A stretch of DNA of 64,000 bases from Klebsormidium nitens. Taxonomy: Eukaryota > Plantae > Klebsormidiophyceae. Made by a program: the position numbers and the translations under genes. Within the stretch, counting starts at the first letter, position 1; every line of letters begins with the position of its first letter. Positions 33,201 through 64,000 of the stretch are shown here, one piece after another. Where the stretch lies: assembly GCA_000708835.1 (NCBI GenBank), contig DF237087.1, forward strand, positions 62,001 through 126,000. The letters are read 5' to 3'. The notes below the pieces were generated by a model. That model saw nothing but the letters and a program-made list of their open reading frames with translations. It ran no database searches and was not told where the DNA came from.

Positions 33201-36200
33201 GTCGCTGCCAGCCTCCTCGGGGACTTTCTCGTCCGCCAACGCCTGCACCAGGTGTTTAACATCAGTGCCAAGATTCTCTTCGACTTGGTGCTCATTGTCA
33301 TTCTGCCAGTGAGCCTTTCGTGGGGATGAGAATCCCAATCGTTACGTCCAATTGAGTATCCAAGTGTGTCAATGCGAGCTCAATACTTCATTCCTTACCG
33401 TAAAGTGACTGGCAGGCCACAATCAACCCAGTGCTCTGAACAGTATCCGCGCCTTATGGTTGATGTGACTGACCGTCCGAAACCAGTGCTCTGAACTGAA
33501 ATTCTACGCCTTGCTGATGATGTGACTGGCACCTAGACGTCAAAGGCGCTTGGCTCTTCGGCGGACTCTCTTGCAATGATCGGAAAGAAGCGCACCCAGA
33601 AAACATAAAACCCCAACACGTTTGCCTGAATGGTGCTCTAATCTGAAGTAAAGCGTCAAGTCGCAAAAGATTAACACCCTAATATCCCGAACCGGAAATC
33701 CTAAATCTTAAGCCCTCCTCACCTTGAGCTGCGCGTCCCAGATCTCCTGCGCCTTCTTCATAAAAATCTCCTGCTGCTGCATCAGCGTCAGCCGGCTGCC
33801 GCGCGCAAACTTGTTGGCGGTCGCGCCCGCGCGCCCCTCGAGCGCGGCCGCGCTGCTGAACTTGCGCACCATCTCGATGCGGCGCCAGCGGTTCTTCGGG
33901 ATGTCGGCCTCGCGCACGCCGAAGTTGAGCAGCATCTGCCGCGATGCGGCCATGCTCAGCCGGCGCAAATCCGCGTCCGTGCCTGACAGGTACGTTTAAA
34001 GTCAGGGTTAGACCTTTAGAATTAGGAAAGTGAAGTTTTTCGAACTCGTCTTTCGAGTCCGCATCGGAGCTTGAACAGCAAATGGCGCAATGCTCAGCCA
34101 GCAGAAGTCCGCGTCCGTGCCTGACAGAGAGGGTTTGAAATTAGGATTCATCTTTGTGACAGGAGTTTGGGGTTCTCCGAATCCTTGTTCCGGGTCCGCG
34201 ACCGAACTTTAGCAGCATCTGCGGCTACGCCGCCATGCTCAGCCGGCGCAGGTCCGCATCCGTGCCTGGAAAACAGGGTTATGCCAAGCCTCAAGCTTAG
34301 CGTTGAGAAATTGGCATGAGGAGTTTACAATCTGAGAGAGCTGATGCTGGTCTGACACGTTGGGTTTCCAAGCGCAGGGTTTTAAAGTAGGAGCGCGAAG
34401 AAGGTTTCTGGGGATGCGAAGTAACCCCAGATGTGGAAGAGGCATTCAGAGGGTAATCAAACCCAGCAGTTGGCTGCATCGCCAAAGATCCCTCATCACG
34501 GCCTGGACTGGACCAGCCCTCTTGGGCTCTGCCGCAAAAGAACGGGGACAAATTTAACGCCTCTTGTGCAAATGAAATTAACGCCGGGGGCAGCACTGAG
34601 AACTTTCATGCACGGTCTGGCTGAACATGATCGGCTTTCTTGCATAGAGAGACAACATCCAAGCAAAGATTGGTTCACATTCTGTGGCACCCCTGAGCCA
34701 GACACATCAAACCTACTGAGATCAACGTCAATACAAGGTCCTAATAAAATTGACCAACGTTAGTTGCTCTCTGGAGTTCCCTGGCCCAGTCCCCATGATC
34801 CACGAGGAAGCCAAATGTCCCTCGTCATAGCCTTTGACCGTCTCGCCTTCGACCGTCTATTTGTCAATTTTGGCATGAAAGACCCTTAGGGAAACGCCTC
34901 CTTCAACATACGAACCTAAAACAACTCGCTTCCTGAGTTCCTCTGGTCCACCATCAAAAGCGACTAGAGAACGTCGTCAGCAAGAACTGAAAGGCGTCAG
35001 CATTTACAGGTCGGATGCTATCGAGGTAACTTGCAATCTCTCAGAACCGCTGCGCCTATTCCACCCCGTTGACAAAAGTTCTTCAGGCCGCGTTCCAACC
35101 TAGACTTTCAGGAAACAACATCGTGATTGTCCTGGGGTGGACAGCCAGGAACCCTAGGCACAAAGTTGGCCATCTTTCTTTTGCCAGCTGTCCCTCTTTG
35201 GAGCCCACAAAGACTCGCCACAAAAACTAAAACTTGAAATCGAAGCCATGTAGGAGGCATGCCGTTACCGAGGCAACACTAAACCTAGAATCGTTTCCCT
35301 ACAAACCGGTAAAGGGGTCCTCTTTGCAAAGTCAAGGGTTGCTGAGTACTCCAGCTTGGCAAGAATCATAATCTGCCACACAGCGGGACTATTGTTGGAT
35401 GGTGCTGGCATTTCACAACCCCACCAATTGCAGCCAGCCAAAGAAGAAACTCGACGCTTTGACTGCAAGCCCAAGGATCGTGACCCGCTTTTGCCAAGCG
35501 GCACAAAAGTTGACGACTGACAGGGCCGACAACGCAGTAATCCTCCAAGATGTCTTCACGTCAGCATACCTCCTGAGATTTCGTTTCGTAACTCAACTAG
35601 CAAGAAAGCGCTGCTTCTACGAGAAAAGAGTCAACGGAATGCTGTGGGCAGTCAAAAGTATCGGCTGCGTTCTGACGCGTCTGCCAGTCTTGGAAAGTTT
35701 CATTGCCACAGATCACGATCGCTGACCCGGTTACTCAAGGTCGATGCGAATCATGCCGCTAAAGCACGCTGGCGAGCCCTTGATCAGAAGAAACATTCAA
35801 GAGATGCCATGACCAAGGGTCGAAGGGTCCGTAAGTCGCAGCACTTCGGAAAGGAGACGGCGATGAGTCCCGACAGAGCCGGGGGAGCCGTCAACTGGTA
35901 GGCGCCATGAGATGCACGCCAACATGCAGTTCTGATTGCTTCACTGAGAAACATGGCTATCCGAGCACGATCGAACGGAGGTTTGCGAATCTGATGTGAC
36001 GGCCATCAGGAATAGAGTATGGCAAAGGTGCCCTTGCCAAGCCGCAATTCCATCCTCGCCGCAGTCGATCGACGTGCTCCCTCGAGCAAGTCAACATGCT
36101 GCAAAAGCTTCCTACTTCTCGAACGGTTTGGCAGTTCATACGGCAAGTTCCTCACCGCAACCAATACGAGAAGGCCTTGGAGCTTTTGACGAATCAAAAC

Positions 36201-39200: not shown

Positions 39201-42200
39201 GACTCAGTGACAAGCTGCAAAGTTCCCCATGATAGCAACTTTGAAAATGTAAAAGACCTCGTAAATGCAAGAACCCACTTTTTCTTGAAGGCCCCCGGGG
39301 GCCGGGACGGCTGCTCGGACTTGGGCAGCTTGTTGGCCTTGAGCAGCGGATGCACCTTGGTGCGGATCAAGTGCACAATGGAGTCGTGGCGCAGGGACTG
39401 GTCAGTCAGCGGGGCGCCGTCCGTGATCTCCTTGCCGGCGTGGAGGAAGCGCAGGGTTTCCTTCTTCACGTCTGCACAGAAGTTGACGGTGGGCGAATCA
39501 GAACTAGCTTCCTGTTGCCTTCGTTCGCAATGCGTCTGCACAAGCGTTGATGGTCTTAAAAGTTAGCTTCTTCTGTCGCCTCGAAGTGGTAAGTTGCTCG
39601 AGTCGGTCCTCGTCATTGACCGTCGGGTTACTCGGAACACTCGTCGAGCTTACGGTGCTCGTCGATTGCAGGTTTTGACTCATGTTGTATCTTTTTCGAG
39701 AGTGCACTATAGCACTTCATAAAGAGTTTGTTGACTAATCAGCAAATCTCAGGTTCATTAGCCAAGCGTCTCACTTCCTGCGGCCAAAAGGCACCAGCTT
39801 CGTCGATAACCCCTTATTTCCAAAGCTCTTCCAATCCCTAGTCCCCATTAAAAGTCCTCAAATCCGGTTTCTTACAACCTCAAACCCCTCGGTTTCATAT
39901 CCATCGGTCCCGCTCACCTTTCCACTTGCTCATCACCTTGCCCCGCACCGCCTCCAGCGCCTCCGACCCCTTGACACGCACCGTCACGCTCTTTCCGATG
40001 TTCCCGAGCGACTTCACCACCAGCCGGATCTGCCCCCGGTCGCCGTTTTCCTGCTCGAACGCGCGGTCTTTGGACACGGGGAACCACACCGCGCGCGGCC
40101 GGTGGAAGTTGGCCATCTCCTTGAGCAGCGGAGTTGGGCGGCTGGTCTGGAGCTTGAGCGCGGGGACGGAGTGCACGATCTTGACGCGGGTCTCCTGGGC
40201 GCGCTGCCGGGCCTTGGTCTTCTTGACCTGTGGCGGGTTGAGGGCGGGTCAACGGCGGGTTATAGAGGTGTCGAATAATGATGTGCCAGAGTCTTAGGAC
40301 GCAATACAGCGAGGACCCGAACAAAGAAACGGAGGAACTTCAAAATAGCCGATAGAAGCGGGTGTCTGGGCGCGCTGACAGACCTTGGATCTCTTGAGCC
40401 GGGGAAGTTCTTGGTTGGGTTAGAGAGCGGTTCAAAACGTCAATAATGGGCCAGAGTCCTGGGGCGGGACTTCAAACAGGCAAAAAAAGGGTCCCACTTC
40501 GCGATAGAAGCGGGCCTCTGTGACCTTCGGTGCCTTCTTCTGGGATGTATAAGGGTTGACTTAGAAGGAGGTTTGAAAGTCGCCAAGTAAACTGATGCTA
40601 AGTCGAAAAGCTTGAACCAGGCGGAGAGCAGGTGCAGTTTGTCCCACAGTTTGTCTCAGAATTCAATGTTCAGGGCCAGTCTATGTACTTGAAAACTGCA
40701 CATCTCGTGGGGTGGCCGCCTGCTTCCTATGGCCGTCATTCACAAGCCCAAAAGACAAGCCGTTTTCCCAACGTGGACGAAGATGCCATCTTACCTGTGT
40801 GGTCTGGTAAAACCTGTCGTTTGACACATTGAACCGGACCGCTGCACCAGGATGGGGGGCAGCCGCCGCCTGCTGATTCTCCCCCCCTGCCAGCGTCGCC
40901 GACGGCGGCCTCTCCTTACTATTTGCCGTCAGAACAATTGCTGCCGCATGCGCTTTCACCTTAAGACCCTCCTTATCCCCGTCCCTCACTTCGAAGACCA
41001 TGTCCGGGTCGTTAAGATCCAGGACGAGTTTCGCCCGCAGTGCGGGTTTGTCCAAACCGTCTTTGATCAGGTCCAAACCCTCCTCGGTTAACCAGTCCTC
41101 GGGCCCCAGCTCGAGTCTCGTCATCCGCTTCAGCAGCTCCTGCGCCGAGACAGCTCTCTCGCTCGCAGAGCCCGGCGCTCGTTTCTCGAGGCGCAGCATC
41201 TGCGGGTGCGCGCCTCCATTGACGTCACCCTCCGCAAAAGTGACGTCATCTTTCGTCAGCTTCTCGAGCACCACTGGCGGCACGGACTCGCCCTCGGTCG
41301 CCTCCGCTAAAGTCGCCGACTGGTCCGTGAGGTTCTTCCCTGCCCCTCCCAAACTCGATGACGTCAGCTCGCTCTCCTCTTCAGACATCGCCCCATTCGA
41401 AAGCGCCCCGTTTGGCAACGACTGCGTCCCGTTCTGTTCCGCAGCGTAAAAGCTACCATCTTCCTGCCCCCTCGGATTCTTCTTCCGACTCACCCTCATC
41501 GCCTCTGATGTCCGCCCATCATCCCACATGATGTTACGCTCCCAGTCAACTTGATGCACCAGTGCAAAGTTTTCCTCTGGCAGCGACGCCCTGAGACTCT
41601 CCAAAACCTCGCCGTTCTCCGCACGAACTGGCTGATTCCCTCCAAAGGCCCCCCGCCGGCGGCCCTTTGGCGCCCGGCCGTCTCTCGGTCGGATGATGAC
41701 GTCAGCGGACGTGCTGGCCGCTAGGTGTGAGGCCCGCCTCTCATCATCAATGTCCATCAGTTCTCTTCCCTCCAACAAACCGTCTCCCAGACCCTCAGCC
41801 GAAATTCCCTCTGGGGCCCGCAAATCGTGCTCGCGAACGGCGACGTCAGCACCCCCCTCGGTGATGTCAGCGGCGGAGCGGCGGCGCTCGTCCTCCTCGG
41901 TTGTGAGGCCCTCTTCTCCGGAGGAGCGCGCCTCGTCCGGCTCTGGCTCAAACGCCTCCTGCACAGCAGAAAGAGACGAGCGGAAGCTCACAGAGCCAGT
42001 GACTGGGCGTGGCCATACACATCGCGCCACTTGGCATGCTCTCCTCGTTCCAGTCTGCTCCCCTTTCTCTTGTTGGGCTTGAACTTCACTTCCAACAGAA
42101 CGTGTGCTGGAACTCTGGTAATCACCAGTCAGGTGCCCGGTTATTAATAACCACGGGCACTCACCCGTTCTTCCTCACTCTCGTCGCTCTTGGCCGGTCG

Positions 42201-44593
42201 GCGCGCTCGCCAATTGAAGCTTCCCCGCTGCTTCAAACTCTTAAACCCCTCTCCGCTCGGCTGCCTCGCTAAGTCAGCACTTGGCTCCTTTCTCAGTTCC
42301 GCTCGTGGCTCCGCACGAAACCACGCCTCGTCATCGTCGCTCTCTTCATGGTCAGCGCTAACCTGGATCTGAACCCGCTTCTTGACCGCCTTCTTCTTCC
42401 GCTTCGTTGACCGCTCGACCCGCTTGCTGAAGATCTCCGAGAACCGCAGCACAGGCTCGCCGCCCGCCTTCTGGAACAGCACCGGAAGCTCTAGGGGTCC
42501 CGCAGCCTCAGCCGGCCTCTCCGAAACCTCTAACGCCTCCTCGTCCTCCTCCATAGGAATCCCCTCAGAAAGCCCTTCCGAGCTCTTCGCAACACCTTCC
42601 TTCTCCCCCGTCCCCTCCTCGTCGTAATCCTCTTCTTCCGGGGGGGGTACTTGCGGCCACTTTTCTGTGGTGGGTCCCCGCCCCTCCTCATCGTAATCCT
42701 CTTCCTCTGGCGCAGCCACGTTTGCCGCTATGATTGGCCCCGGCAAAACTGGTAGTTCCGTTGCTCCCCCATCATCGTCATAATCATCTTCCTCTGCGCC
42801 GGGGGCGGCCGGTTGCTGGGGAAGAGGCAGCACAAAGTTTGGCAGGGGGGGTTGTAAGGCGCCAGGGTCGTCAATCACCTCCTGTTCGTCCTCGTAGTCA
42901 CGTGCGTTCTCTGCTTTCACGTCGTAATCTGCAAGTGAGGCAGAGTGAAAATTGGTGTTGTGACCAGGATTTGAGAAGTTGGAAGATAGCAGCGCAAAAA
43001 TGAGGTTGACGATGACTTCTGGGTCTCTACTTCTACCTCTGAAACCTTGCGGCATCACATTTGCAAGATGTCAGAAGTAAAGCCTTGACGGAAAACGAGA
43101 ATTAGAGCTGAGAATTCGAAGAGATGCCCCAGTATGTCCCAGTGTAAATTCCTGCAGAGCTTGGTTCTACTCGAAAATCAGAACTGTCTGAAAGGAATAT
43201 TGCCCTTTCCTTTTCTTTGAGTCACTATGCTTGAGAAAATGCTTCACTTGAGCTGCGGCATCCCAGATCTTGGTCGAGCCCAGACCCAAACGCTGCTTCC
43301 CAGAGAAATAAAAAGTTTGATTTGAGATGCTTTCCAAAGTCTTGGTACCAAGCTGCAGAGCCCATGCACGAAGGATACTTGGAAAGCCCATAATTGACTG
43401 GTATCCAATTTCAACACTTTGAGCTAGGACAGGTGGCGACGATGAATCTTAAGACTGACGCTGTTGTGAGCCAGCATGTCTACAATTACATCAAAGATTC
43501 TCACCATCATCCTCCTCGTCCCGGTGATTCTCAGACACGAGCCGCTGCAGGTTGAGCCGTCCACCCAGCCTGGCGCCCAGCTCTCCCAGCTTGTCAATCG
43601 CATCCTGGTCAGAAGAGCACACCAGTGAGCGTGCTGATGATGAAAGTGGGATGATGAACCTTCAGATATCTCCTAGTTGCGAAGGTCTCCCCAGACATTC
43701 TGTAGCATCTGGTTTATGCTCCGTCTCGCTACAGCTTTTGTTTCTTTTTGACTGATTCAAGAGAACCTGGTTCCTGAAGTTTGTGGCACTTGTATGGTAG
43801 ATCGTGAAAAAAGGTGATGTCCAACAAAAGTCCAAAAGTGAGATGGTGTCTGTGCTTCGTGTGCGTCGAGTGCGTTTTCTAAGATCGCAACAAGACCTCG
43901 TCACCTTCTTGATGTCAAGAACAGGGTATAAGCGACCGAAGCCTGTGGTGCTTTTAATCCTTACAGTCAAGTAATCACACAAACCAGGTATGTGGGACAG
44001 CAAAAAAGAGGAAGTTGTAGTGTCAGCAAAAAACAAACAGTTCCGGTGGTTGTCCACAAGCTGCAACTTGGAGATAGAGGTTGAGTAGCCGCAGCCAGAG
44101 CAACCTTTAACCTGCTCTTCGTGTCAACTTGGATTGCTATCAGACTTAGATGGTGACGCAACCAAAAAGTTCTTGGGTTGGTTTCGCAGCCATACAGGAT
44201 TGTGTTCCACTTGTCATTGAAGGAAGAAGAAAGAAGAACTAATAGGTGACTAAATTGCACACTGCGGTCAGACGGCATCTCGGCATATCTCAGAAGCACT
44301 TTCAACAAGGAGCCCATGAACAAGCATTCAACCTCACACCTCATTCAGCCTGTATTCGTAAGACAAAATGCATGCTGCAGGATTCAGGCAATTGAAACAG
44401 TGGTTGCGATGAGGTGACACGAAAAAAAAGCACCTACTTGGTCAAGATAATTCTCTTCCAGGCGGAGGTTGCGGTCCACGTTCCCAAACATAAACCCTCC
44501 CAGCGCGTTTCCTCCACCCCCTTCCTCCTTCTTTTCCTCCTCTTCATCTGTGTAACCCCCTTCATCCGTCTGATCGCCCCATGAGGTTGCCAT
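30227..44593 (-). CDS. TAF1: Transcription initiation factor TFIID subunit 1 (plant HAF/TAF1 type), 13 exons
   Basis: Exons 44593-44438, 43604-43505, 42928-42165, 41958-40795, 40227-39918, 39471-39279, 38814-38436, 38055-37756, 37252-36892, 33982-33723, 33242-33033, 32098-31032, 30437-30227. The 3' end is uncertain because a GTGAGA donor at 30259 may lead to another exon. Features: TBP-binding LGGFMFGNVD, DYDVKAENARDYED, DUF3591 core (MANFHRPR, LLMEYAEERPPLL, GTDADLRRLSM, RWRRIEMVRK), inserted ubiquitin-like domain, zinc knuckle CLKCGQVGHMSTNRACP, one bromodomain (YPFLDPVD...PDYYDIITRPMCL...IRANAHTYN). Confidence 0.95.
32722..32930 (-). repeat. Two decayed copies of the TAF1 exon 11 3' end plus donor site
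   Basis: Minus strand GAGGAGCAACTGGAGGACGAGGGAG|GTGGG (about 32930-32874) and GAAGAGCGACTGGAGGACGAAAAG|GTGG (about 32780-32722) echo the real GAGGAGCAGCTGGAGGACGAAGAG|GTGGG (donor at 33032). Confidence 0.85.
34062..34272 (-). repeat. Two decayed copies of the TAF1 exon 10 acceptor plus exon start
   Basis: CAG|GCACGGATGCGGACCTGCGCCGGCTGAGCATGGC (acceptor at 34266) and TGTCAG|GCACGGACGCGGACTTCTGCTGGCTGAGCAT (acceptor at 34121) echo the real TGTCAG|GCACGGACGCGGATTTGCGCCGGCTGAGCATGGC (exon starts 33982). Confidence 0.9.
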
Positions 44594-49978: not shown

Positions 49979-52181
49979 TTAACGCGTTTGTGAACGTATT
50001 GACCATCTCCTGACTTTTGCTTTGATCTTGGGCCCTACCTTGCGCGACCACCCCACAGCGGTCTTTGCAATCCACTCAAGAACGGTCCAGGCGAGGCACG
50101 CGCACAGATACAGGCACAGCGCGCGCAGCGCGGCATCCACTGGCGGCAGAAAGCGAAAGAGGCCGACGGAAAAAATGAGAATCACCATGTCGATCAGGTC
50201 TCGCTCGCCTTGGATTGCCGCGCGGAGGGAGGGCCACCCGGATAATGCCGCGACGAACACCTGGACTGTAATTGGGATGCCCAGCTCAGAATCGAACCCG
50301 AACAGTCTGACCGAAAAGAAAACTGAGGTTAGTTGTGGTCTGTAAACGGTTAAATGAGGTACTCCAGGGAAAGCACCAGGCCAAAGATGACGTCAGCGAT
50401 GCAGATGCCCCAGATCACGCGGTCCGCCGCTCGAAGCGCAACCTCAAACAGGCGTTGTGACCGAATTTCCTGGTTTAGTGGGGTCAGGATTGCGTCCTCG
50501 AGGGCGCCCCCGCTCGGAACCGCAACCGTTTCACCCCGTTCCGCCGCTCCTCTGCGATCCGTTCCGCCCGGAAGTCGTGCCCCGCCCTGGTGCGGCACGA
50601 TTATTATCCTCTTTCCCCGCCGTGACGCGCACAGCACCCTGAGTTTTGCGAAGAGCTGCTGTGCCGCAGCTGCGCTCCGCGCATAAAAGGCCGGCCGCAA
50701 ATGGATGACGAAGCGGGCGTCGGCGTTTCGCTCCAGAAACTGAGCGACGTAATCAAGGTCCGCCGGAGCCAGCGGAAAGTCGAGCGCAAGCGCTTGCAAT
50801 CCCTGGCTAGCCTGCAGCTCTGCGCAGGTCAGAATGGTCCACGCCATGTCATCGTCGCGGGCGAAGTCGTGGCAAAGATGCTGAAAGGTGACGGTTCCGG
50901 CGTCGCCCTTGCCAAGCACAACGGAAAGTGAGCGGACTTCCAAGTAGCTCAGCATGCAGTTGCGAACGACCACGCGGTGAGCGGACGGCGCGCCTCGTAG
51001 AAATTTGCCAAGCTCCTCAAGTAGAGGTTCCTCGAGATGAGTAACGAGGTGCTCGAGGATGACGGTGTAACTGAAAACCTCCGTCGTCGCGCCTCTAGTT
51101 TGCGACCCTCCACCGCCCGTGATTGCTGCTATCTTCGCTCTCTGTTTCACGAGAGAAGAAATCTTCCTCAAGAATCTCTGGTACGCTGCTTCCGAGCCAA
51201 CGGATTGAGGAGCGACTGAAGCAGCGACGCGCTCAAGTTTCGTCTCTCGATCGCCTCAAATGCGCCAAACGGTTCTTGGGCGGGACCCCACGGATTGAAT
51301 GGCGTCAAACAGTTCGGCTTCCAGGGGTACGTACCGGACACGTCCTTGAGATTCAGGAGAAATGCACAATCGAGCGCCAGACTTCGAATCACGTCTAACA
51401 CCGGGTCGTTCGTCAGGAAACCGGGGTCACCTTCCCCGTCCATTCTAACAGTGACTTGGAACGCCGCTGCTGACAGGGCGATCACGCAGGCCGCGACAAA
51501 GTTTGGGGACAACTGGACCGCTCCAGAGACGTTGAGAAGGACCTCTCTCTTGGCTGACCTCTGTCGTTCAGGCCTTTCCGGCGGACTGCTCGTTCCGTTT
51601 CTCACGAAGGCAGAATGGCTGCTGCTCACGTTCCGCAGGAAGTTGCAGACGGAGCGGACAGCCAGCGGAATCCGCTGCAGCTGGTCTTCCACCCAGAGCG
51701 TGCATGTCTCGAGGAAGAACCTCACAGAGATCCAGGACTCAGGCACTGCTGTGTACAGAAACCGCAGGGACATCAGCTGCAAATAGATGGCCTCCCTCCA
51801 GAGCGACGCCCGCGTTTTCCGCTTCAGCTGTTCCACCGCCAGTAACTTGGCCATCCTGTGCTTCGTGAAACCCGCGGTGACGTCACCCAGGCTCTCCGCC
51901 ATTCGCCGTATCTGAGCTGCGCCTTTCTGCATGCGTGGCTCCAGCCTGATCAGCAGAGACAGAAGCTGGTCCTCCGTGCAAGTTTGCGCGTCCACAGCTC
52001 CTAGCTTTATCGCATGCCAAAGCTCCGGATCCCGCAGCGCATCCCTGTGGCTCTTGTCCAAGATCTCCAGGCGCAAGCGCTCCTTCAGGCTGATGTCTTT
52101 GAGTATCAGACGGAGGACATCCGCAGGCAGCGCAGCTAACGCCTGCGCTTGTGCAGATGGACGAAGAACCTGAGCCGCCAT
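49979..52181 (-). CDS. F-box protein with long central region and C-terminal hydrophobic (putative transmembrane) helices
   Basis: N-terminal F-box LAALPADVLRLILKDISLKERLRLEILDKSHRDALRDPELW. Three collinear ORFs can be joined in frame through short GT-AG introns 51184-51126 (59 nt, weak; a frameshift is the alternative) and 50362-50307 (56 nt, with CTAAC branch and pyrimidine tract). The C-terminus has hydrophobic runs such as VIWGICIADVIFGLVLSL, LIDMVILIFSVGLFRFL and ALCLYLCACLAWTVLEW. Confidence 0.65.
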
Positions 52182-53192
52182 GGTGCGCGCGCGGGAGTGT
52201 AGGCGGTGCTAAGCCTTTTGATATCCGACGAACTTGCAGATTATATGAAGCGCTTGCAGCTAACGAGCATTATGGGCGAGTAGGACTCAAGCTGCATGGC
52301 AGCTACGGTAGCTAAGGGCCGAAGGGCACAGCTGATGACGTACAGAAGATGTTACAGAAGTTGGTGGATTTTCAAAATCCAACCACTAATAATTCTCCTT
52401 TATGAAGCGAGACGTTCCGCTGTGCGCGCCTTATGTAGCCATTTTGAAGACGTTCCACATACTTTCAGGGCAGTAACAATGTTGATGCGGAGTATGAGGC
52501 AGTCAAAGGGCCCGCTAATTAGTATTACTGGTGCATGCGCTGCCGGCTTGACGATCGGTGCGGTACAAAAACCTGGTTCCGCAACGCGGACCCCAGCGCC
52601 AGGCGTCGCATATACCTAGTCCGATACCAAGCGGCCGCACCGTACGTGCGACTTGCTCGGCCGGCCGCGGGCGGCGGCGGCTCCTGGCACAACCAGTTGG
52701 CGCGACCTTGCATTCCCACCCAACCCAGCCGGGTACGTCTACCGGGCGGGCCTGGGCCTGGCCCCTCCGGCATACGCTATGAGCCAAAGAGGCTCAGCCC
52801 GTGCCGTTACCAAGCACTCACAGACCGTTCCCATTCAGCACGCCAAAAGAAGACGTCCAGCTTCCTTGCCCATTCAGATGAGCCCTCGCAGTGTGCAAAT
52901 CAGCCGCAATCTTGCTCACTTTCCACAGTTCGCTTTCTTCGGTGGCAATTACTTCAGCGGCTTCCGTGTGCGTTAGGCCTCTTGCAGTAGAATGACAGAG
53001 CCAAAGCAGGCGGCCTTAGAGAAGGTGCAGGGCAGATTGGTGTGGCTCAGGGCTTACAGGTTGGCCGGCAATCAATGTCAACAGGGATTGGTGTTCTGTA
53101 AAGCGTTGTGGGGGCGCTTCCTAGTATCAGTCTCATTATCTCTCTTGGTCTTGTAGGAAGCAAATCAGAGCTGGCCCTTCAACTGTGTCGTC

Positions 53193-56100
53193 ATGGCAAG
53201 AGGCCGCCCTCATGGCCGGTCCAAGTCTGACCACAGAGTTTGTCAGGCAGCCCGACATGCGCTAGCNNNNNNNNNNNNNNNNNNNNNNNNNNNNNNNNNN
53301 NNNNNNNNNNNNNNNNNNNNNNNNNNNNNNNNNNNNNNNNNNNNNNNNNNNNNNNNNNNNNNNNNNNNNNNNNNNNNNNNNNNNNNNNNNNNNNNNNNNN
53401 NNNNNNNNNNNNNNNNNNNNNNNNNNNNNNNNNNNNNNNNNNNNNNNNNNNNNNNNNNNNNNNNNNNNNNNNNNNNNNNNNNNNNNNNNNNNNNNNNNNN
53501 NNNNNNNNNNNNNNNNNNNNNNNNNNNNNNNNNNNNNNNNNNNNNNNNNNNNNNNNNNNNNNNNNNNNNNNNNNNNNNNNNNNNNNNNNNNNNNNNNNNN
53601 NNNNNNNNNNNNNNNNNNNNNNNNNNNNNNNNNNNNNNCTGCAGGAGGCGCGGATTGCGGCGGTTAACGTAGAGTGCAACGTGGAAGATGCCCCTCGTAG
53701 GCAGCGGGGCCAGAAGTCTAAGGATCTACAGACCAAGGCATCAGCTGCTCGGGTGTCAGCACAGGGCCATTCTTCCAAGGCAACTGGCAGTGGGAAAAAG
53801 AAAGTAAACAAGCGATTGGAACATGCGCATGGCAAAGCTGCACAAAGCGGTGAGTTTCTGGTGCATGGCTTCTGGGTTGAATGCTTGGAGTTATGAGGCG
53901 GACGCAAAGCAGAAGCTGGGACGTATTGGTGTGTAAGATAGAAAGGTGAGGGGTGGGTGGCCTTGCAATGTGTACCAAGAAGAGCATGTCTGTTCTTGGT
54001 AATGGAAAGGAACGAAGTTGGTACACACTACTTTCGGTAGCGCGGTCAGAATGGTTTAAGGGTGGCTGGCTCTGCAGTTACTCATAAGATTCTGAGGAGT
54101 CTTAGCGGGCATGTTTGTCCCTGGGACGTACCAGACTTTGCCTCTTTCTCTTTAGGAATAAGAAGCTAATTCTTGGTACATACTGTCATCACAAAGTTCT
54201 AAGCAATCTTAGCGGGAATGGCCGTCCCTGGGATGTACCAGACTTTGCCTCTTTCTCTTTTGAGTATAAGAGGCTGATTCTTGGTACATGCTGGCAATTA
54301 CAAACCTCCAGCCCCACTGCCAGAAGAAAGAGGCATGACTGCAAAAGGCAGGGGCACCCACCAAGTTCTGCATTCATCTCCAAGTTTAGACTCCAGGTTC
54401 AACACCCAACCTCTGCGATTCTTCATTGCAGACTTGCATAGCCTGTACTGCAACGCGTGCGGCGCTCCCGCAGAGTTCGGGCTGCGAGGAAGCAAGGAGG
54501 GGGGAAGCGTCAAGTACTCGTGCAGAGCGCACACCACGTCGAGTGGTTGCTTTCGAGTCGACCGAGACCGCGCAGGTGAGAGCATTCGGGGAGCCTGCTG
54601 TTGACATGGTTTAACTTTCATACAACGTTCATAACTGCTCTCCCATTGGTGAGCAGTGAGCCTTTAGAAAAGACTGTCGAGAGCTTTACATGCTCTGTAT
54701 GCTCCTGCAGCATGGGCAGAGGACCGAGAGATGCGCCGCCTGAGAGCACAGGAGAGGAGGTTGGAAGAAGAGCTGCGGAACCTGGGAGGGCCCTCCTTCA
54801 CTGCAAAACCGCCATATGGTAAGCATGCGGCGCAATATCACCCAATCATTTGTGCTCTTATACAAAGCCGGTGGGCAGTGAGCTCACTGTCATACCTCTG
54901 GTGCATTTTGCATCTTCTGCTGTGCCTTGACCCGTTATTCAATGGTGATGGCAATCAATGGTGATGGCAACTTAACGCTTCACTGTTTACTTCTGCAGCT
55001 TCGGAAAAGTCCCAAAGTGTGGGGCCTCAGGCTTCAATGCCCATGAGCCGGTCGCTCATAGGTAAGGCGCTTCGGTTGCAGTTCTGCAACTGCAGTTCAC
55101 TTGTACGGCTGTTGGGCTCGCTCTGTATTGCAAGCGCTTGTAGCAGTTAAGCTAATCCTACTTTGACGGTTTTTTAGACAGACTTGGTGCTTTTCGCTCG
55201 TGCCGTGATCAGTCCAGCTTTCAGCATCTAGCGTTCCAATATGTTGTTCCTCACGTGCAGCTGCTCTTCTCATGATGGGTGGGATAGAGATCAACCCCGG
55301 CCCTACTGCAGACAAGGTGAGCCTGGACAGTGAGAAGCAGTTCAGGCGGGACCAGCACTGGTTGTACTCGAGCACCCAGTCGGGCCTCCGCTGTGTAAGC
55401 CTTCACCTTGGTAAGCGAGTTTGTTCAGGAAGATGACCTGTGGAGGGCGCCAAATAATTGGAACCAAACACGATTCCTGGTGTCCACTCGTGCAGGAGAT
55501 AGAGATGGAAGTGTGCATCTGGAGGACGCCAGACTTCAATGCGATACCAAAGGGGGAGACAGAGGGGATCCCTACAGACATCAAACTGCTGCCAGACACT
55601 GCTGCTGAAGAAGACCAGCGCCTGCACTTGCTGAACCAGTTTGGGGAAAAGGAGAGAGTCTTTGTGTGGGGTAGGCCCCTGCGCCCTGGGGGTGAGCCTG
55701 TCTTCCGGGAAGTCGAGCGGGCAAAGGCTTTGAAAGCCCCGCCACTGATGGAGCGGCTGACCCAGCGCCCCCAGATCAAAGTTGTCTCAGGTACGCATAT
55801 ATAAAAATAAAGGATTCAAGTCGTGGTGTTGTTGTTCAGCATGTAGCGGCAGGAAAGCTGGGAGAAGATGGCATGGGAAGGGACATGGCTGATTGCCGGG
55901 TAGTATAGTTGCTTCTTTGTCGATCTTGCCGAGGACACTGGTGCATGCTAGGCATGGGGTGTTTCTAGCAGAAGCGGAGTTGCTCTGGAGCAGAAAGCGG
56001 TCTGCTGTGCAATTGTTGGCAGACCAGGTGCAACTCACGAGCATTTAGGTGCTTGTCAGCCGTCACTCTTATGCACTTTTCACTTGCTGGGGTTCTCAAC

Positions 56101-59100
56101 GATCCAACCTCATTTGCTGCCTCAAGCATATATGCTGCGTCACCCTGCTCATGAAGCTCTTTGTTGTTGCAGGGGCTGGTCCATCAGCAGTTGGCGAATC
56201 CAGCAGTGGGGTGCAGGTGCGGGGGGAGCAGGTGGGTGAGTGCACCTCCTCCCAAAGTGCCTTTCTTGCCACCAACCAGTGATTGTGCAAACGTGGAATG
56301 CAAGTGGGCGCTCCCTATGGGCAAGCTGTGGTGAGCCATTGGACTAATATTCCATGGCTGTGGAGGTGGGCCACATGCAGGCCCCAGTTGGAGGGGATTT
56401 GTTCCAATGAAAATTGTGGTCCGAGGGTTTCGTTCTTTGTGTGGCCTGCATGATCTTTGTCATGTCAGCGTGCTCACCTGGTTGCACGTCCAACCCAAAG
56501 CCTGTTTGGCGATAAAGTGCTGTTACCTATCTTTGCTGTCGTAGATTGCGTCTTACCTCAAGAGTTGCTCAGCTTGTTGCCAACACGACTGCAGACGTCA
56601 AGTAGGACAACAACACCTGCATATTCTGCAGACTCGGAGGAAGAAAGTTGCTTGTAATGGTGGCCTTGTCAACCGAAGCTGAGCAGCAGGATGCTTTTCA
56701 CACTCATTTGCGAGACATGCGGTTCATGAAAATCGGTTTCATGGGACAGGTCAGAGGGAGCTGGCTTTCGTTGACCCCTCAATGTCTCTTTTACAGGCCG
56801 GAAGGAGTACATTGGAAGCAGGACGGAGGGCATCAATAACAGAAGCAAGGAAGCCTACTCCTTGAGAACCAAGACTGTAGATGCGGTCATAGATGCAATG
56901 GACGAGCAGGGGGCTATTCTAGTCAGAGCTCCGCCTCAGAGTGGAAAGACTTCGTTGCTTCAGCTGGTTGGGGACAAGCTGACTAATATGCAAAGCAAGG
57001 TCTACTACGTCTCGTTGGGGCAGTACGATCCGGCAGAACAGGACTCGTTCGAGAGAGTGTGGGCTGAGTACAATCCTGGCACCGTCTTCAACAACATCGT
57101 TGTCACTCCGCAAACCTCCCCAGAGTCTAACAACAAGCCGGCCCCCCCACCCCAACCTGTGTACCTCCTTGTAGACGAAGCCCAGAAGGCCTTCCCCACT
57201 CTAGGACTGGCCCTGTTCAAGAAGCTAAAGGACATCCAGAGCGGGAGGTCCAAGAGCGGTTTGCGTATTCTACTAGTCTCGTGCTGGGGCAGCAAGAGGA
57301 TCAAGGCAACGACCGCCGCTGGATCCGCGTTCTCTACCCCGGGCTCTTGGGACAATCAGACTACGATAGGACTTTGGTAAGCCGCTAACTCACGCACCTG
57401 TGATGGTGCTACTTGTAAGAACACGAGAAGTGAGGCGCCTCTTTGTCTCTGGAGCATGTTTAAGCTTCCTCTTTTCCTATCATGTTTCTCATTTGAGCTT
57501 GCAGGACAAGGAGAAGTGGCAAATGAGTTTTACTTCCTCTTAGCCTCGCAGGAGAAGGTGTTGAGCTGTTTGATTGTCTGTGCCGGAACGTCTAAGCACT
57601 TGCTAGTAGCCCACACAAGTGACGATGAAGGACTTTCTCAACACAGACGTCTTTTGATTCTGTCAGGCGAGAGCCGGAGTCGAGCGGGCTGGACATAGCG
57701 CTCCAGTTCACGTTCGACGAAGCACAGGAGTACTGGGCGGGCTGGTTAGCTGCCAATGGTTGGAGCGGGTATGCAGCGGATTCGGAGCGCAACTACCTCT
57801 TTGTCATAACTCAGCGTCAGCCTGGCGCACTCTCGCTCCTCCTGGACCGCATCAAGGACCTGGGCCTCCAACCCTCACGAGCCACTGAAACCGAGTGGCA
57901 TGAGAAAGTGCGGGCTTGGCTGCTGAGCGAGAACCTCATCAAGGCGGTCGCTGACTTGCGCAGTATGAGCATGTAAGTAGCAGTCCAACAAGCAAGAGCC
58001 TGGCTTGCTACACCTACTGCTTGGGTATCCCCCCGAGCGCCTCTTGCGTATCACAAAGTTTCCTTAGCTGTTCACCTGCCAATCATCCACTAAGGAACAT
58101 CGGTTTCTACATTCATTTTGTGTACCATCTGACACCCGCCAATTTGATCGAGTAGCTGAAGGCTCACATTCATTGAGACTCGTCCGGTGTATTCTCGCAG
58201 GTTAGCGGATGCCTTTGATCAAGGCATCACCGGTGCTGTCCCTGGGTCTGCCGATGTTCCAGCAGTTGCTGTGAAGGACCTCGTACGGAAGTTGCTGCAC
58301 GGGGGTGAATTGAAGGTGATTGTGTTGCAACTGACAGGTAGTTTCCACTGTGTGGAATGCGCTTTGATGCATCAGCAGCCAGGATGCGCTTCCTGTGAAG
58401 TTTGCCGCCTGTTTCACAATTCTACGTGTTGGTCGGCCAAGCTTGCAGATCGCTGAAGCCGCAGGATTTCGCAGAGTTTCGACAAAGATAGCATCAATCA
58501 TCGTGATGCTCGTGCACTACTCTCTGCACGAGTGAGAAAGTGGATGCACATATCCAAATGAGGTCGCTTTGTTACCAACTTCCTCGTTATGCCGATCTCA
58601 GAGTAAGTTGACTTGGCCTCTACTTCCATGCAGGTCCACTCCAGTCAGCTCGTTCGGTTTGCAGACGAGTATGATGCTGCATTGACGCTGACAAGATTAG
58701 GGCAGCTGATCCTAGAACAGGAGTTCTTCTATCTGCCCTCCATCCTCCACATGCGGTATATGACCCGCCAGTTATATCTGGGCCGTAACCAGGACGCACA
58801 TGCTATTCTCGAGGCGGGCATTTTTGAGTTCGTCGTGGTAGTGGTGGAGCGGCTTGATCCTGTCCAATTGAGGAAGTCGGAGTCTCGTCATTCTGCCGAG
58901 AGCGCCCTGTATGAGCGACAGTTCCAGAACTCCTTTTATCAGTGAGTATTCCTGGCACTAGTGGTCTTCATGTTTTTGAGATTGTCGCAAGTCGTTTGCA
59001 AGGGCGACCCTTTTGCTGCATCTGAGAAGCAATCAAACCATTGCTTGTTTGCTTGCTTTTCATTAGGGCCTCAGTGCTTCTTGAGAGAAGGTAACGTACC

Positions 59101-59871
59101 TTTCTGCAAGTGCGAGAGTTTGAGAGAGTCCATGCAGATCCAGATTCTCTCTAGCCCTGATGGATCAATGAGTGTCTCATCAAGCATCCTTGCGGTGTTT
59201 GTCGACACGGAGCTCCATGTTTCTGCAGGGCCGCTATGAGCTACCTACCCCACGATGCGATTCTCTCACCTGATGTCGGGTACCTATATGGAGCCGAAGG
59301 CTACCTTGATTTCTTGCTGGGGCACCCGTTTGCATGGGGATTTGAACTTCTACGAGAAGGTGATAGGCGGCGGGAGCACCTGGCAAGGTAAGTGGCGTGC
59401 AGTATGGGCTGTCTGATGCACTTGACTTGGTTTTAAGTATAATTTGTTTCGTTTGACGGTGTCTTTGTCGAAGCTGTCCAGATTTCATCACTGCAATTCG
59501 CCAGAGAAGACTTCTTGCCATGAGAGTCCTACTCATTGAGAACGTCTCTGAAGACACATGTTCTGATCAACACTAGCCTTTTGTTTGAGCCATGTGTGTG
59601 ATTAATCTACAAGTTGCTTGTCTGGATAGTAATTTGAGCTCAAGCGAGTTGTATGGTTCGCAGGTTTGCTTCTGGAGGGAAGTACTTTCCACTCCTCAAT
59701 GCCAACGCCGTTAAGCAATGGGTAGTGTTGGATTTCTGCTGGAAGAGAGGCGCTTTTCCTCCAGAGATCCCACACGGCTTTGTGCACGTTTCATTTTCGG
59801 ACAACTTCACACAAGCTGTTGTAACAGCTAGCGACAAGCAGAAGATCGTTGAGTTGAGAGGCCTTAGATAA
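53193..59871 (+). CDS. Crinkler/RHS-type (CR) effector-like protein: N-terminal header with Zn-binding motif + P-loop NTPase + PD-(D/E)xK-type nuclease, 13 exons
   Basis: Exons 53193-53849 (contains N gap), 54432-54575, 54711-54818, 54999-55061, 55312-55394, 55496-55790, 56173-56235, 56797-57376, 57667-57972, 58201-58315, 58634-58941, 59229-59387, 59664-59871(TAA). All junctions are GT-AG, phases match, and there are no stops outside the gap. Walker A ILVRAPPQSGKTSLL, Walker B YLLVDEAQ. Nuclease-like motifs LYERQFQNSFYQ, LSPDVG, GYLDF, WGFELLREG, EHLARF, WVVLDF. The family assignment is from recalled motif similarity, not a search. Confidence 0.8.
53267..53638. other. Assembly gap (372 N)
   Basis: Run of n characters inside exon 1 of the NTPase-nuclease gene. 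Confidence 0.99.
54100..54294 (+). repeat. Direct repeat, ~107 bp period, in intron 1 of the NTPase-nuclease gene
   Basis: TCTTAGCGGG...GTCCCTGGGAYGTACCAGACTTTGCCTCTTTCTCTTT...TTCTTGGTACATRCTG occurs at about 54100-54187 and 54207-54294. Confidence 0.9.
54940..54971 (+). repeat. Tandem 16-mer x2 (CAATGGTGATGGCAAY)
   Basis: Directly visible in intron 3 of the NTPase-nuclease gene. Confidence 0.9.
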
Positions 59872-61949
59872 GTTTCGCTGATTTACATTGACTTCCGAAA
59901 CTAAGAACGATCATATGCCGCAAGGTCACTTGCCAGCATTTTCTTTGCATAAAAGCCATCCGTGGCAAGAGGATGTAGGAAGCTGCCCGATTGGGGATTT
60001 AAGCAGCCGACGGCCTCCAATTGGGACTTTGTTTGTGTGCCTTTGCAATACAGAGATCATGCATGCTTGTTCATGTTGCGAAGCTATCAAGGTTGCAAGC
60101 TTTGGTTGCAAAAATGAAGCTGCGGGCTTAAAGCTGCATATTTTATGCATGGCCAGTTTAAGCCGGACACATACAAACCCGGAACGATCCGGCAAGAGTA
60201 TTAGCCTACTTGAAGGGCGCCAGATCAGCCTCCAGGACCGTAAGGCACACATTTTTTTGTGGCACTGCATTGGAGTCAGAAGCCCTATCCATTGATGTAG
60301 GTTGCCTTACCTATCAAACACCAACCTAGAAACAAACCGCTATTTTGATTCTTTGTGAGTACCCGGAAAGGCAAGGAATCACCACAAGGATAACTGCTTA
60401 CTGCATATGTTATATCGGTACAGCTTCTCCCGATCAACCTGCTAGTTTTACTGTCATCTAATCTAGACTAATTTCACTCACAAACAGACTGACTAAGTTA
60501 CACTATATTTTTCACTAAAACTAGCAGGTTGCTCGGAACTATAGCTGTATGTATCCGTTCTCTCCAAAAAGAACAGACCGTACTCGTACTTCATCGCGAA
60601 TGTTCTCAAATGCAGCGCGGTAAACGCGTAGTCGAGCGGGTTTTGGGTCAGTTTGGGGCTGTGGCTGTCCAGCCATTACCAAAGACTAAGTTCCGGTTCG
60701 ACTGTACACTGTTACCAGTGTGATAAGTGCAAACCGTAGGCTCTAGTTGCTCCGGCCTTGAGGCACGGTGGCACTTTTCATTATTCAGTCTTCAGTACCA
60801 GCTCGCAAATGGCCACCAGCAGCCCCGGCACCTAGCTTTGGTGCCGCTTACGGCACCGTGCTGATGGTACTCAGCTCGCAATGGCACCTTTTGGTGCATT
60901 CATGGCACCCTGCAGCTGCCATCCACTTGGCTTTCTCTGCTTCTATGCTGACTCAATTGGCCAGGGACTTGAGTCAGCTGGCTTGCATGGAGCTTGACTC
61001 ACCTGGCTTGGAGCTTCATTCAGCTAGTCTGGAGCATTTCTGCAAAGTTGCTAAACAGTGTATCTCCATACGTCCTCACGCTGTTAAGGGAAGAGAGGCT
61101 GCCCTCATCAGCCAGGGATTTATGGTGTGCAACCTTGTTTCAAATGCAAGTAAGTCTAATTCCGTAACGGCTGAGTTTGGGGACTAGCCTGAGTCGCTTG
61201 ATCTTCATGGTACGGGTGCTCAACGAAATGTCACAGTCAATGCAGAGGGTTGAAGTTCAACAACAGCACTTGGTGAGTAGCATAGTGCTGCCGGCTGGAA
61301 AGCCGCACGATGCAGGGAAAAGAGTAATTTCCGTGAAACTTAGCAAAGTTCAGGCTTTCAAGCATCATTGCCTCCATTTTGGGGGACGCAGATCTCAGGG
61401 TTTTGTGCACTCTGTGGGTGTCAGAAGGGAGCAAAAGATTAGGGATAGCTGGTCCACATGAAGGCTCGTTCAAGCACGTGGTTTTGCATGAGGGCGCAGG
61501 TCAATACGCGCAAAGTTGAGCATCAAAAAGGCTATGTTGCTGCGTATTAGATCATGTGTGTCTTGGGGTCAGAAAAGCTGTTGTCTCTACATACTTGGGC
61601 AATATACAATGATGATAAGCTGCGAGTCAGTTGTTGGGGACCCAATAGATCAAGTCAAAGATTGGGGGGTTTGAGCTGCCTAATTGCTGCTCAAGGCAGT
61701 GCACTCATTTAGATTTGGGCACCTCAGTTTTCTGGTCTCAGGTCGTTGGCAATCTCCTGAAGTGTCCCTCACAAAGACTGTCTGGATTTAAGGGTTATGA
61801 TGTCAAATGCTTGAAGGACTTACATAGACATGGAGAATGGTTGAAAGACAGTAGCGTCAGATTCTTTGCATCAGTGATTGAACACAGTTCTTAAATTGAG
61901 TTTACTTTTTTCTTCACTTCTTTGTGCTGCAGTTGGGTTCTCTTGGAAC

Positions 61950-64000
61950 ATGGCGAGGACTCGCCCCCCCGGAAGGACCAAGTCTGATCACTGGGTTCGT
62001 CAGGCGGCACGACATGCGTGCCCCGCAGACGACAGAGACTGCATTACAATCAGCGCCGAGAAGCAGGAGGCTCTCATCGCTGCTGTCAACACGCGAGGCG
62101 AGGCTGAACCTACCCTGTGCCACCGGCGGCGCCAGGAGTTCGAGGGGGTGCAAGCTGCTTGTGGATCCTCGCCATTCCGTCCTGAGGGCGAGCCCATGCT
62201 GGGACATGCTCAAGTAGCTTCCAAGCGGCCCTCCCTCGAGGTGAGCGAGCTTTGACAGCTTCCGTGTTACGAGCTTTTGCTCGGTTTCTCCAAACTTCCT
62301 TGGGCTGCGGCCACCGGGCCAGAAAAGGAGCGGGCCGCCACAAAAGCTAGAGCCAGGCAACAACTGCAACAACTGGTCGCTTTGAGTCTGGTCTAAGTCA
62401 AGCCCCCCAAACAGGCCGAGTTGCATTGTGAAACAAATACGCAGTAAGTGACTGCCAGAGCCTCGAGCAGGTGATCTGCTTGGTTTAGGAAGCATTGAGT
62501 ATAGAAAAGCCAATGCAAATTGACTGGCAGCCGCACCGGCATGTTTCTCCCGCAGCATCTTGCTCTTGTAACTGACAGCAGCGGCCAGATTATTTGCTTG
62601 GTTTGGGAGCTTCAAAAGTATAGAAGAGTTGGTGCAAATTGACTGCGGACATGCCCGCCAGTTTCAGACTTGATTCGGAACCATGTTTGTGAGGTCGATG
62701 ATCACGGTACCTTCTTCTAACGCGAGGCTTCGATGCAGGACCCATCGCTCGACGCGTGTGCTGCTCAGGGCGTCAGTCCTACGCACTCCCCCCAAGCTGC
62801 CCTCGACAACTCGCAGGACGATGCCTTTAGCTTCTCTACAATCCGGGCGCTCGTGAGAGCCGCGCTGACCGGATCGCCGAATGATTCGAAGAGGGGCCAG
62901 CGCGTCTTTCGGAAGCATGCAGGAACGGTGTGCCGTCGCGCTCGGGAGGAGGCTGGCCCTGCCGGCCTTCTGTGGTCGAGAGCCGCTTGGGAGGGCAGCT
63001 TGCATGCAGCGAAGACCGGCCTCGAGTGGCTGGCAGAAACGTCGGAAGTCGTTCTGCTGGACGGTTTCAAGGAGGTGCTGGCTGCGACAAAGAGGGCTCA
63101 CCTTGAGGGGCTCGAGCAGCCAGCAAGTGCGTCCAGCAGGCCTAGGCATGCGGCAAGAGAGAAGACGGCTGGCATGGCTCGCTCCCCAGCTGGCAATCCT
63201 AGAAAGAGAGCGGCTCAGCGCTCTGCACGTTCACTTGGCAAACCCGCAGACCAAGGTGAGGAGAGCAGCCGATCTGCGAACTTGTCCTTCGTTCAGCTTT
63301 TGATTCTCTTCGTTCAAACCAAGTCTTGAAGTCTGGTCTGGAGAGCAGATGATGCTAGAATGCAGTAACCGGCTGTTTGCATGATCAGTCCTTGTGTCCT
63401 GGCGTCTGCTGGAATTAGAGTCTGGACTAGCAAGAGTTATTGATGGCAGGTGCTTTGGCTTGACTTGGTGCGCTGGACGTTCCAAAGTGTCGAGCTTCGT
63501 AGCTTTTCTGGTGCCGCTGTGAGCCCCGCGTGCCCCAGTCTATTTGCCTGGCTTAGAAGCTCTAGAGTATAGAAGGCCAGGGCATATTGTCTTGCACCAT
63601 GCCGCGTGTTTCCGGACTTCCCGCTTTCAACTGATGGCGTGGACCAGTTTATTTGCCTGGCTTGGAAGCTCTGAAGTATAGATAAGCCAGTGCAAATTGT
63701 CTTGTAACTGATGGCGTGGACCACTTTATTTGCCTGGCTTGGAGACTCTAAGTATAGACAAGCCAGTGCATATTGTCTTGTAACTGAGTACGTTCGCATA
63801 TTCCCCATTTGGAGTGCAGCCCATTGTTGGTACCAGTGTCGTTCTGTAGAATCAATCAAGGCCTTCTATTTAGTGAGTTACTCGACTGCCTCTAGCCTCT
63901 AACCCCACCGTTTGTGTTCTTCAGATGATCTGCATACTCTTCAATGTAACAAGTGTGGCGCCACTGCGGAGTTTGCTCTTCGGGGCAGCAAGGAAGGGGG
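61950..64000 (+). CDS. Tandem paralog of the 53193 gene (5' part; continues beyond window)
   Basis: Exons 61950-62240, 62739-63255, 63925->64000 with phases 0 and 1. MARTRPPGRTKSDHWVRQAARHA matches MARGRPHGRSKSDHRVCQAARHA; KQEALIAAVN matches LQEARIAAVN; DLHTLQCNKCGATAEFALRGSKEG matches DLHSLYCNACGAPAEFGLRGSKEG. Confidence 0.8.
62474..63787 (+). repeat. Dispersed/tandem ~55-77 bp repeat family in introns 1 and 2 of the 61950 paralog
   Basis: Core TATTTGCYTGGYTT.GAAGC...AGTATAGA.AAGCCA.TGCAAATTG at about 62474, 62591, 63541, 63650 and 63727. The last two form a ~77 bp tandem pair (63629-63787). Confidence 0.85.

Follow-up and report, generated by a model that had tools for sequence, protein, structure and literature searches.

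StopGo or 2A peptides, at which a ribosome skips between a Gly and a Pro, are common in RNA viruses and rare in cellular genes (PMC12846837), and their role in eukaryotic proteins has been called unclear (bioRxiv 2026.06.17.732966). A cellular case is the NLR family of sea urchins (Roulston et al. 2016, PMC4981915), in which about 35% of the members have a 2A at the N-terminus that also serves as signal peptide, and partial skipping gives two forms of the protein. The CR (Crinkler-RHS-type) effectors (Zhang et al. 2016, as presented in PMC5289972 and PMC11342252) consist of a variable header, a P-loop NTPase, a helical/winged-helix part and a restriction endonuclease (REase) domain; because CR genes have already been described in non-pathogenic plants (PMC5289972), finding one in the plant lineage is unsurprising. 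Here we describe a gene of the streptophyte alga Klebsormidium nitens, at 53193-59871 on the plus strand of a 64,000-nucleotide (nt) window (contig DF237087.1, positions 62,001 to 126,000), which encodes a leader of 226 amino acids (aa), a 2A/StopGo-like peptide and a CR-type cargo. In our reading, to which we assign a probability of roughly 0.6, the ribosome likely skips the Gly-Pro bond in part of the translations and releases the 682-aa cargo.

The cargo, a CR-type NTPase-nuclease, is known biology. The gene shares with CR effectors the order of domains, the lack of a signal peptide, modular recombination and occurrence in free-living green organisms, and some of its homologs, oomycete and glomeromycete proteins among them, carry the Pfam Crinkler header. 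It differs from them in having the leader and the 2A before the header, 12 introns and no Pfam Crinkler domain, and the other CR relatives that we fetched all lack the 2A motif. The modelled NTPase core also resembles STAND immune NTPases (plant NLRs, prokaryotic Avs), with matches to 2qen, 2fna, RPP1 and a wheat resistosome; unlike those proteins, the cargo has no C-terminal sensor repeats and carries a nuclease-like domain at its C-terminus.

With the sea-urchin NLRs the gene has in common that a cellular multigene family of STAND NTPases bears a Leu-rich 2A ahead of the NTPase. The sea-urchin peptide is an N-terminal secretion signal with a D-type core, placed before DEATH-NACHT-LRR proteins (PMC4981915), whereas the algal one is internal (residue 226), of G-type, split by an intron and preceded by a basic leader with a predicted zinc finger, and its cargo has no leucine-rich repeats (LRR). 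Accordingly, in the algal family the end of the motif lies at residue 184-642 (14 long members), and no N-terminal hydrophobic segment was found. The core octapeptide, the Leu-rich upstream helix and the permitted variants are those of viral and non-LTR retrotransposon 2A peptides (PMC12846837, PMC3708506), and RNA-virus contigs and dataset S1 of Li et al. (PMC12846837) contain a closely similar upstream class. The host differs: it is a family of intron-rich nuclear genes in a streptophyte alga, and Li et al. report almost no StopGo in plant viruses. In the literature available to us we found nothing that links 2A to CR effectors or to Klebsormidium; Zhang et al. 2016 may list these proteins or the leader. 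Both ingredients are thus known, and the peptide itself is catalogued in a screen; what we did not find described is the coupling of a 2A leader cassette to CR effectors in a streptophyte.

A spliced gene with a leader and a 2A-like peptide

The gene has 13 exons and 12 introns, all of them GT..AG, as established from spliced contigs and an exon-by-exon check. All 12 intron phases match, no split codon forms a stop, and translation exon by exon gives an open frame of 871 codons from a run of N to the TAA. Eleven of the 12 introns are seen as joints, each in contigs from 4 to 7 of seven RNA-like runs, while the sole support for junction 2 (54575/54711) is a 12-letter loose end present in five runs. 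An eighth run (X19) covers introns without a single joint and therefore behaves as DNA. As the RNA nature of the seven runs was guessed by a program, the expression call rests on the spliced joints, which look like those of transcription. The gene is genuine and spliced. It corresponds to the public model P0003 (K. nitens KFL_001380200), of which all 13 exon translations are substrings, and 510 of its 524 C-terminal residues are identical in the public protein P0001, from a transcript labelled K. subtile. A sequence-only reading of this DNA had proposed 13 exons with twelve GT-AG junctions, matching phases and no stops, and had asked for RNA confirmation of the junctions; contigs and frame bear out this architecture. 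Other donors for exons 5, 7 and 10 (55410, 56216 and 58337), which we had read by eye, break the frame and are absent from contigs.

Exon 1 (53193-53849) contains the start codon and the basic N-terminal part of the leader, 72-96% identical to the N-termini of paralogs, and is interrupted by 372 N at 53267-53638. At its nominal length this gap puts the ATG at 53193 out of frame. Loose ends of 28 and 29 letters that flank it overlap by 20, giving an in-frame join of about 37 nt, and the paralogs P0004 and P0174 have 37 residues ahead of the post-gap codon. The 372 N therefore likely stand for about 37 nt; with this length the reading is in frame and the protein comes to about 908 aa, in line with the more than 900 codons expected earlier; the length is an estimate, because the loose ends may stem from near-identical paralog transcripts. 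The start at 53193 had been correctly placed and improves on the public model, since paralogs begin with the same peptide. The contigs do not support the public start, ATG 52992 followed by a splice over the gap, as they run unspliced through 52995-53266; that ATG opens an upstream open reading frame (uORF) of 54 codons (52992-53156, plus strand) in frame with the main ATG. The 5' region (52888-53192) holds a further uORF of 8 codons and is nearly identical across paralog transcripts. Its uORFs are possibly a second layer of translational control.

The rest of the leader is encoded by exon 2 (54432-54575), with a Cys/His motif (CxxC...CxxH, 54449-54532) that is a predicted zinc finger, by exon 3 (54711-54818), which adds a charged, coiled-coil-like helical part, and by exon 4 (54999-55061), which provides a linker and the first five codons of the 2A 20-mer (from 55046); exons 3 and 4 are both seen in spliced contigs. 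The 2A-like peptide spans 55046-55304, with intron 4 (55062-55260) inside it. Exon 5 (55261-55316; joints in X2, X4, X5, X8 and X13) encodes the core GIEINPGP (55281-55304) and the first cargo residues, so that the Leu-rich peptide ends in GIEINPG|P and the predicted skip falls between 55301 and 55302 (Gly226|Pro227). A joint 55061-56171, which could be taken for skipping of exons 5 and 6, was rejected because its loose ends match the paralog P0167.

The leader is basic at its N-terminus (25-29 Lys and Arg versus 11-13 Asp and Glu in the first 110 aa of five paralogs). Its Cys/His region gives weak Pfam Zn-ribbon matches under the cut-off, and comparison with Atlas structures gave no usable match (best 0.76, with an EsV-1-7 Cys-motif row under the bar). 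The absence of a signal peptide, claimed earlier, agrees with the paralog P0004, whose first 60 aa have a maximal Kyte-Doolittle 19-mer value of 0.25. The same reading had missed that the N-terminal quarter is no ordinary header. It is a leader common to the whole family, with a 2A/StopGo peptide at its end, and the gene therefore likely yields two polypeptides.

The leader family and the case for skipping

With residues 1-245 of P0004 as query we retrieved 13 long proteins and 20 short ones, and P0003 brings the family to 34. Fifteen of these are genome models of K. nitens, 14 of which carry the motif, three are Trinity isoforms labelled K. subtile, and the others are single-exon fragments. 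Protein searches set a minimum of 15 K. nitens models, spread over many scaffolds, for the copy number. Neither protein searches nor Atlas named a leader homolog outside Klebsormidium. The motif [VI]ExNPG[PW] is present in 17 of the 34, that is, in every protein that reaches its position; the remaining 17, of 115-209 aa, stop short of it. Over the 14 aa before the core, mean identity is 61% (91 pairs among 14 proteins), and the 60 aa after the skip site of the same proteins fall into five unrelated groups. Homology within the family thus ends at the skip site, before differing headers and cargos. P0165 joins the exon-6 header of this gene to the NTPase of P0004, P0167 has only exon 7 in common with this cargo, and the NTPases of P0163 and P0162 are NACHT-like and RHS-like, respectively. 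Among eight proteins scanned, NCBIfam gave a single match, a sub-cut-off RHS hit for P0162, and PHROGs gave none.

One relative lies in tandem downstream on the same strand (61950-64000; transcript region 60814-64000), with coding exons 61950-62240, 62739-63255 and 63925 onward. It shares the leader, has a 5' intron at 61150-61932 and an extra exon (62739-63255) common to P0167, is contained in a contig of 3,633 nt, and leaves the window before its 2A and cargo. In two other leader-2A genes, P0168 and P0172, we read C-terminal primase-like motifs by eye, which we take to be of the archaeo-eukaryotic (PrimPol) type, as in giant-virus primases; these parts matched nothing in Pfam, PHROGs or NCBIfam, nor, for P0172, among PDB sequences (phmmer).

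The core of this gene fits the StopGo consensus (D/G/C/N)(V/I)ExNPGP (PMC12846837), as do 13 of the 17 family motifs strictly, and 16 when the reported Trp at position 19 is allowed. Glu, Asn, Pro, Gly and two upstream Leu (p3 and p8) are invariant in all 17, while p13 is Val or Ile, p15 takes six residues, p12 is Gly (14), Cys (2) or Ala (1), and p19 is Pro (14) or Trp (3). These substitutions are those that StopGo permits, Gly and Cys at p12 and Trp at p19 being reported as functional in viruses, with a natural Trp variant that retains 91.5% activity (Li et al., PMC12846837). By chance the motif is expected 6e-6 times per 880 aa, and it is absent from the 71,421 residues of non-family relatives.

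A published pooled screen in HEK293T cells (PMC13405545, supplement) contains the exact 20-mer of the spliced coding sequence and places it in the class 'Skipping/Skipping and Falloff', with scores of 2.62, 2.30 and 2.35 where non-skipping controls score about 3. An engineered Asp variant of the same 20-mer received 2.56, 2.30 and 2.26 and the same class. Eight screen peptides map to the family, four of them skipping (this gene, P0162, P0174 and GAQ93188).

Several points weigh against skipping in the alga. The class is the call of a support vector machine with few training samples that reclassified 86% of them, and the authors of the screen ask for individual confirmation. The screen used 20-mers in human cells only. 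Of the mapped family peptides P0004 is fall-off only, and P0164, P0173 and P0175 are non-skipping. With 721 skipping and 815 fall-off rows among 3,993, base rates are high, and the family is therefore not clearly enriched. Li et al. assayed upstream motifs 1, 3, 4 and 6 without the Gly-ending motif 5 (PMC12846837), to which the peptide of this gene may belong. Furthermore, conservation of the motif is partly the shared descent of a young family, the three isoforms labelled K. subtile may be chimeric, and leader and NTPase are never bridged within one contig; no single contig covers the entire transcript, and 55568-55699 is covered by paralog-like contigs only.

In a different explanation, close to the sequence-only reading, the motif is a relic or too weak to act, and a single protein of 908 aa is made with the leader as a long, lineage-specific CR header. 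Three of eight family peptides being non-skipping and the high base rates favour it, and conservation may reflect recent duplication, as paralog contigs over the 5' region show just 4 differences in 105 letters and 6 in 232. On the other hand, p15 and the flanks vary around an unchanging core, the changes that do occur are permitted ones, homology stops at the skip site, and both the peptide of this gene and its Asp variant scored as skipping. We consider such a relic improbable, at something like one chance in five, and favour partial skipping.

Use of 2A in K. nitens extends beyond the leader family. GAQ92643 has a related 2A of the skipping class, its top structure match being an Ndc10-domain protein (PMC13405545, supplementary file 4), and UPI000B56B393 has two related copies (PMC12338488, Table S2). 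Rao et al. (PMC12338488) list one other Klebsormidium protein, unassayed there, and do not list this motif, and the main text of PMC13405545 mentions neither Klebsormidium nor Crinkler.

A STAND NTPase followed by a nuclease-like domain

The cargo comprises 682 aa after the predicted skip, of which the C-terminal 524 form a STAND-type NTPase and an REase-like domain. It begins with a header domain in exon 6 (55496-55790), a stretch with near-identical copies in other transcripts; comparison of this domain with Atlas structures gave a best TM of 0.46 and no usable match. Exon 7 (56173-56235) is a linker common to P0167. The P-loop core is in exon 8 (56797-57376; Walker A at 56943, Walker B at 57174) and matches Pfam AAA_22 with 29.7 bits (cut-off 27). 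It is followed by a helical domain with a conserved Arg in exon 9 (57667-57972; LRS at 57956) and by the beginning of a winged-helix-like part in exon 10 (58201-58315). Exon 11 (58634-58941) completes the STAND module and from about 58781 enters the REase-like domain, whose ExxxQ helix lies at 58910. The core of that domain, with conserved Asp (GYLD), Glu (GFEL), His and Arg, is in exon 12 (59229-59387), and exon 13 (59664-59871) ends the domain and carries the stop codon. The motifs named in the sequence-only reading were located at GKT 56943, DEAQ 57174, YERQ 58910, SPDVG 59266, GYLD 59299, GFEL 59338 and EHLA 59374.

In a structure model of P0001 (pLDDT 90.7), residues 1-350 align with the archaeal STAND-like ATPase 2qen (Z 16.5, root-mean-square deviation 4.1 over 266 residues), followed by 2fna (Z 15.4), 9h2l (Z 15.1) and plant NLR cores (Z 14-15), so that by the model the layout of STAND NTPases, a P-loop core with helical and winged-helix-like domains, is present. 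A phmmer search of P0001 against PDB sequences returned no match, and the Pfam scan found no C-terminal repeat family of the sensor type (LRR, TPR, WD40), the C-terminus being alpha/beta and REase-like.

For the C-terminal domain we compared the model of P0010, a homolog with 39% identity (pLDDT 93.7). Forty-four of its 50 best VIA-align matches are REase-fold nucleases, led by BstYI, OkrAI, BamHI and BglII (Z 6.3-6.7); we take AF1548, TT1808, CdiA-CT and SfsA to be members of this fold. The individual matches are weak and, at the level of models, form a consistent list. Against the assignment stand the modest top match (BstYI, Z 6.7, deviation 4.3, 120 residues aligned, under the tool's mark of 8), the use of a homolog for the comparison, and a Foldseek search with the C-terminal model that gave no match at E<=0.001. 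Of the NTPase-then-nuclease order proposed earlier, the NTPase is thus borne out by Pfam and the model and the REase fold by the homolog; the structure check was divided, VIA-align supporting the nuclease fold and Foldseek returning nothing.

The catalytic Lys of the canonical D...(D/E)xK pattern of the PD-(D/E)xK superfamily is absent family-wide (E-L-L in this gene), the residue two after the Glu being Leu, Thr or Val, and a Glu common in the family (98 of 112) is Ser here. These features, together with truncated paralog models (P0164, P0174, P0175 and P0180), would suit a decaying or catalytically dead copy that is transcribed and spliced without nuclease function. We regard this as very unlikely: the frame is open over 13 exons, the Lys is missing throughout the family, and 510 of 524 residues are kept in P0001. 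The Walker Lys, Asp and Glu are all retained, as are six C-terminal family-conserved residues (Glu, Gln, Asp, Glu, His and Arg), of which the Asp is conserved in 109 and the Glu in 112 of 113 sequences. Judging from the alignment, the near-invariant Glu, Gln, His and Arg may substitute for the Lys.

The Crinkler header PF20147 (the LxLFLAK/HVLV type of oomycete CRN effectors) was not matched in P0001-P0004. It scores above cut-off in P0029, P0065, P0094, P0130 and P0145, which phmmer relates to P0002 at E<=2e-12, and since NTPase-REase relatives thus carry Crinkler headers, the CR assignment, and with it the kinship recognised earlier from motifs, holds. The header occurs in 2 of 95 unselected relatives (alignment A4) and in 5 of 12 hand-picked ones. 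A search with P0002 among 50% representatives gave 781 relatives at E<=0.001, and the named ones, from 20 proteins looked up, include relatives in Selaginella, Chlorokybus, a hornwort, Chlamydomonas, a xanthophyte, a chytrid, glomeromycetes and an oomycete. In a quick tree of 43 rows, which left out fragments and 10 near-duplicates and did not retain P0167, five Klebsormidium rows group with Selaginella (SH-aLRT 99) inside a looser group of Chlorokybus, chlorophytes and a xanthophyte (SH-aLRT 90); nothing in this tree points to a recent transfer from fungi or oomycetes.

Origin, proposed mechanism and significance

The same peptide class was found in eight viral contigs (of 89 pattern matches), including RdRp (RNA-dependent RNA polymerase)-bearing ones and a Trp variant, and in 15 metagenome loci (of 516); this likeness is partly selected, because the searches were seeded with the motif. 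The RNA-virus contigs include L002, with an RdRp by Pfam, and L005-L007, with GDD motifs. In L002:2-6110, ORF1 combines a methyltransferase-like domain with the RdRp and ORF2 has two such 2As, and in L004:1-140 the Trp variant follows an upstream stretch much like the algal one. Among eight metagenome open reading frames (ORFs) scanned, four have a PHD finger and three an SGNH domain; the class precedes PHD(+SGNH) ORFs in L009-L014 and L017-L020, which we take to be retrotransposon ORF1-like. In L015 it stands ahead of a herpes-tegument-like peptidase start (weak Pfam match), and in L022, by eye, of a possible APE-like start.

A further possibility is a selfish toxin-antidote system or mobile element of the Medea kind, in which the leader neutralises the nuclease or is the remnant first ORF of a cargo-capturing transposon or virus. 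CR NTPase-REase modules are tied to mobile elements, Medea1 among them (PMC11342252), the 2A class is shared with RNA viruses and PHD+SGNH ORFs, and at least 15 models lie on many scaffolds. A specific antidote fits poorly, since one leader precedes several unrelated cargos, some without a recognisable enzyme (P0170, P0171 and P0190). The 12 introns, the lack of terminal repeats among repeats of at least 30 nt and the failure to name a leader homolog outside Klebsormidium also argue against it, and we hold this origin to be distinctly unlikely.

The surroundings in the window contain a glycosyltransferase-like gene (1227-3750), a CAAX-protease-like gene (7580-8182) and a large multi-exon gene on the minus strand (30830-43070), presumably encoding the TFIID subunit TAF1 by its motifs; together they indicate an ordinary chromosomal setting. 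An inverted pair of coding-like stretches (21833-21942 and 25625-25737), which we assume to be germin-like, probably marks two oppositely oriented paralogs. On the minus strand at 50350-52208, just upstream of the gene, two long ORFs lie in tandem (301 and 346 codons, counted between stops), the second with a weak F-box-like match (E 0.046). Short diverged tandem repeats occur in an intron of this gene (54082-54296, spacing about 107 nt) and in introns of the downstream paralog (62497-63787, spacing 76-119 nt).

In the mechanism that we propose, translation from 53193 would produce the 226-aa leader, the ribosome would stall at Gly226 and free it, and in part of the cases would resume at Pro227 to make a 682-aa header-NTPase-REase protein of standard CR layout. 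Read-through would give a leader-fused form, and fall-off, in which the second product is lost, would lower the dose, so that skipping in the alga is expected to be partial. The basic zinc-finger leader is predicted to be nuclear and to bind nucleic acid. If STAND proteins and CR effectors are a guide, the NTPase may gate the nuclease, which could cut nucleic acid in the alga's own cell, either against the DNA of an invader or in self-killing of infected cells. The leader-2A unit, with the 5' region and its uORF, would act as a reusable expression cassette, duplicated and exon-shuffled onto differing conflict cargos and setting their dose and location. More broadly, and tentatively, at somewhat under even odds, we suggest that Klebsormidium domesticated a StopGo of virus or retroelement type as a leader cassette that serves no fewer than 15 conflict genes, among them several types of CR NTPase-nuclease and possibly primases. 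Partial skipping would then determine how much of a self-held nuclease is made and where it goes, and the zinc-finger leader, once released, would regulate the family.

For the streptophyte lineage, the gene provides a spliced nuclear example of StopGo whose 2A codons are interrupted by an intron, and its family a natural allelic series (p12 Gly, Cys or Ala; p19 Pro or Trp) within one cultured alga, which makes the cellular purpose of 2A directly testable. The parallel with the sea-urchin NLRs suggests that STAND conflict proteins have recruited 2A peptides repeatedly. The gene may also offer an answer to how a free-living cell keeps CR nucleases without harming itself. If our reading is true, an alga closely related to land plants would have a natural polyprotein system in its nuclear genome.

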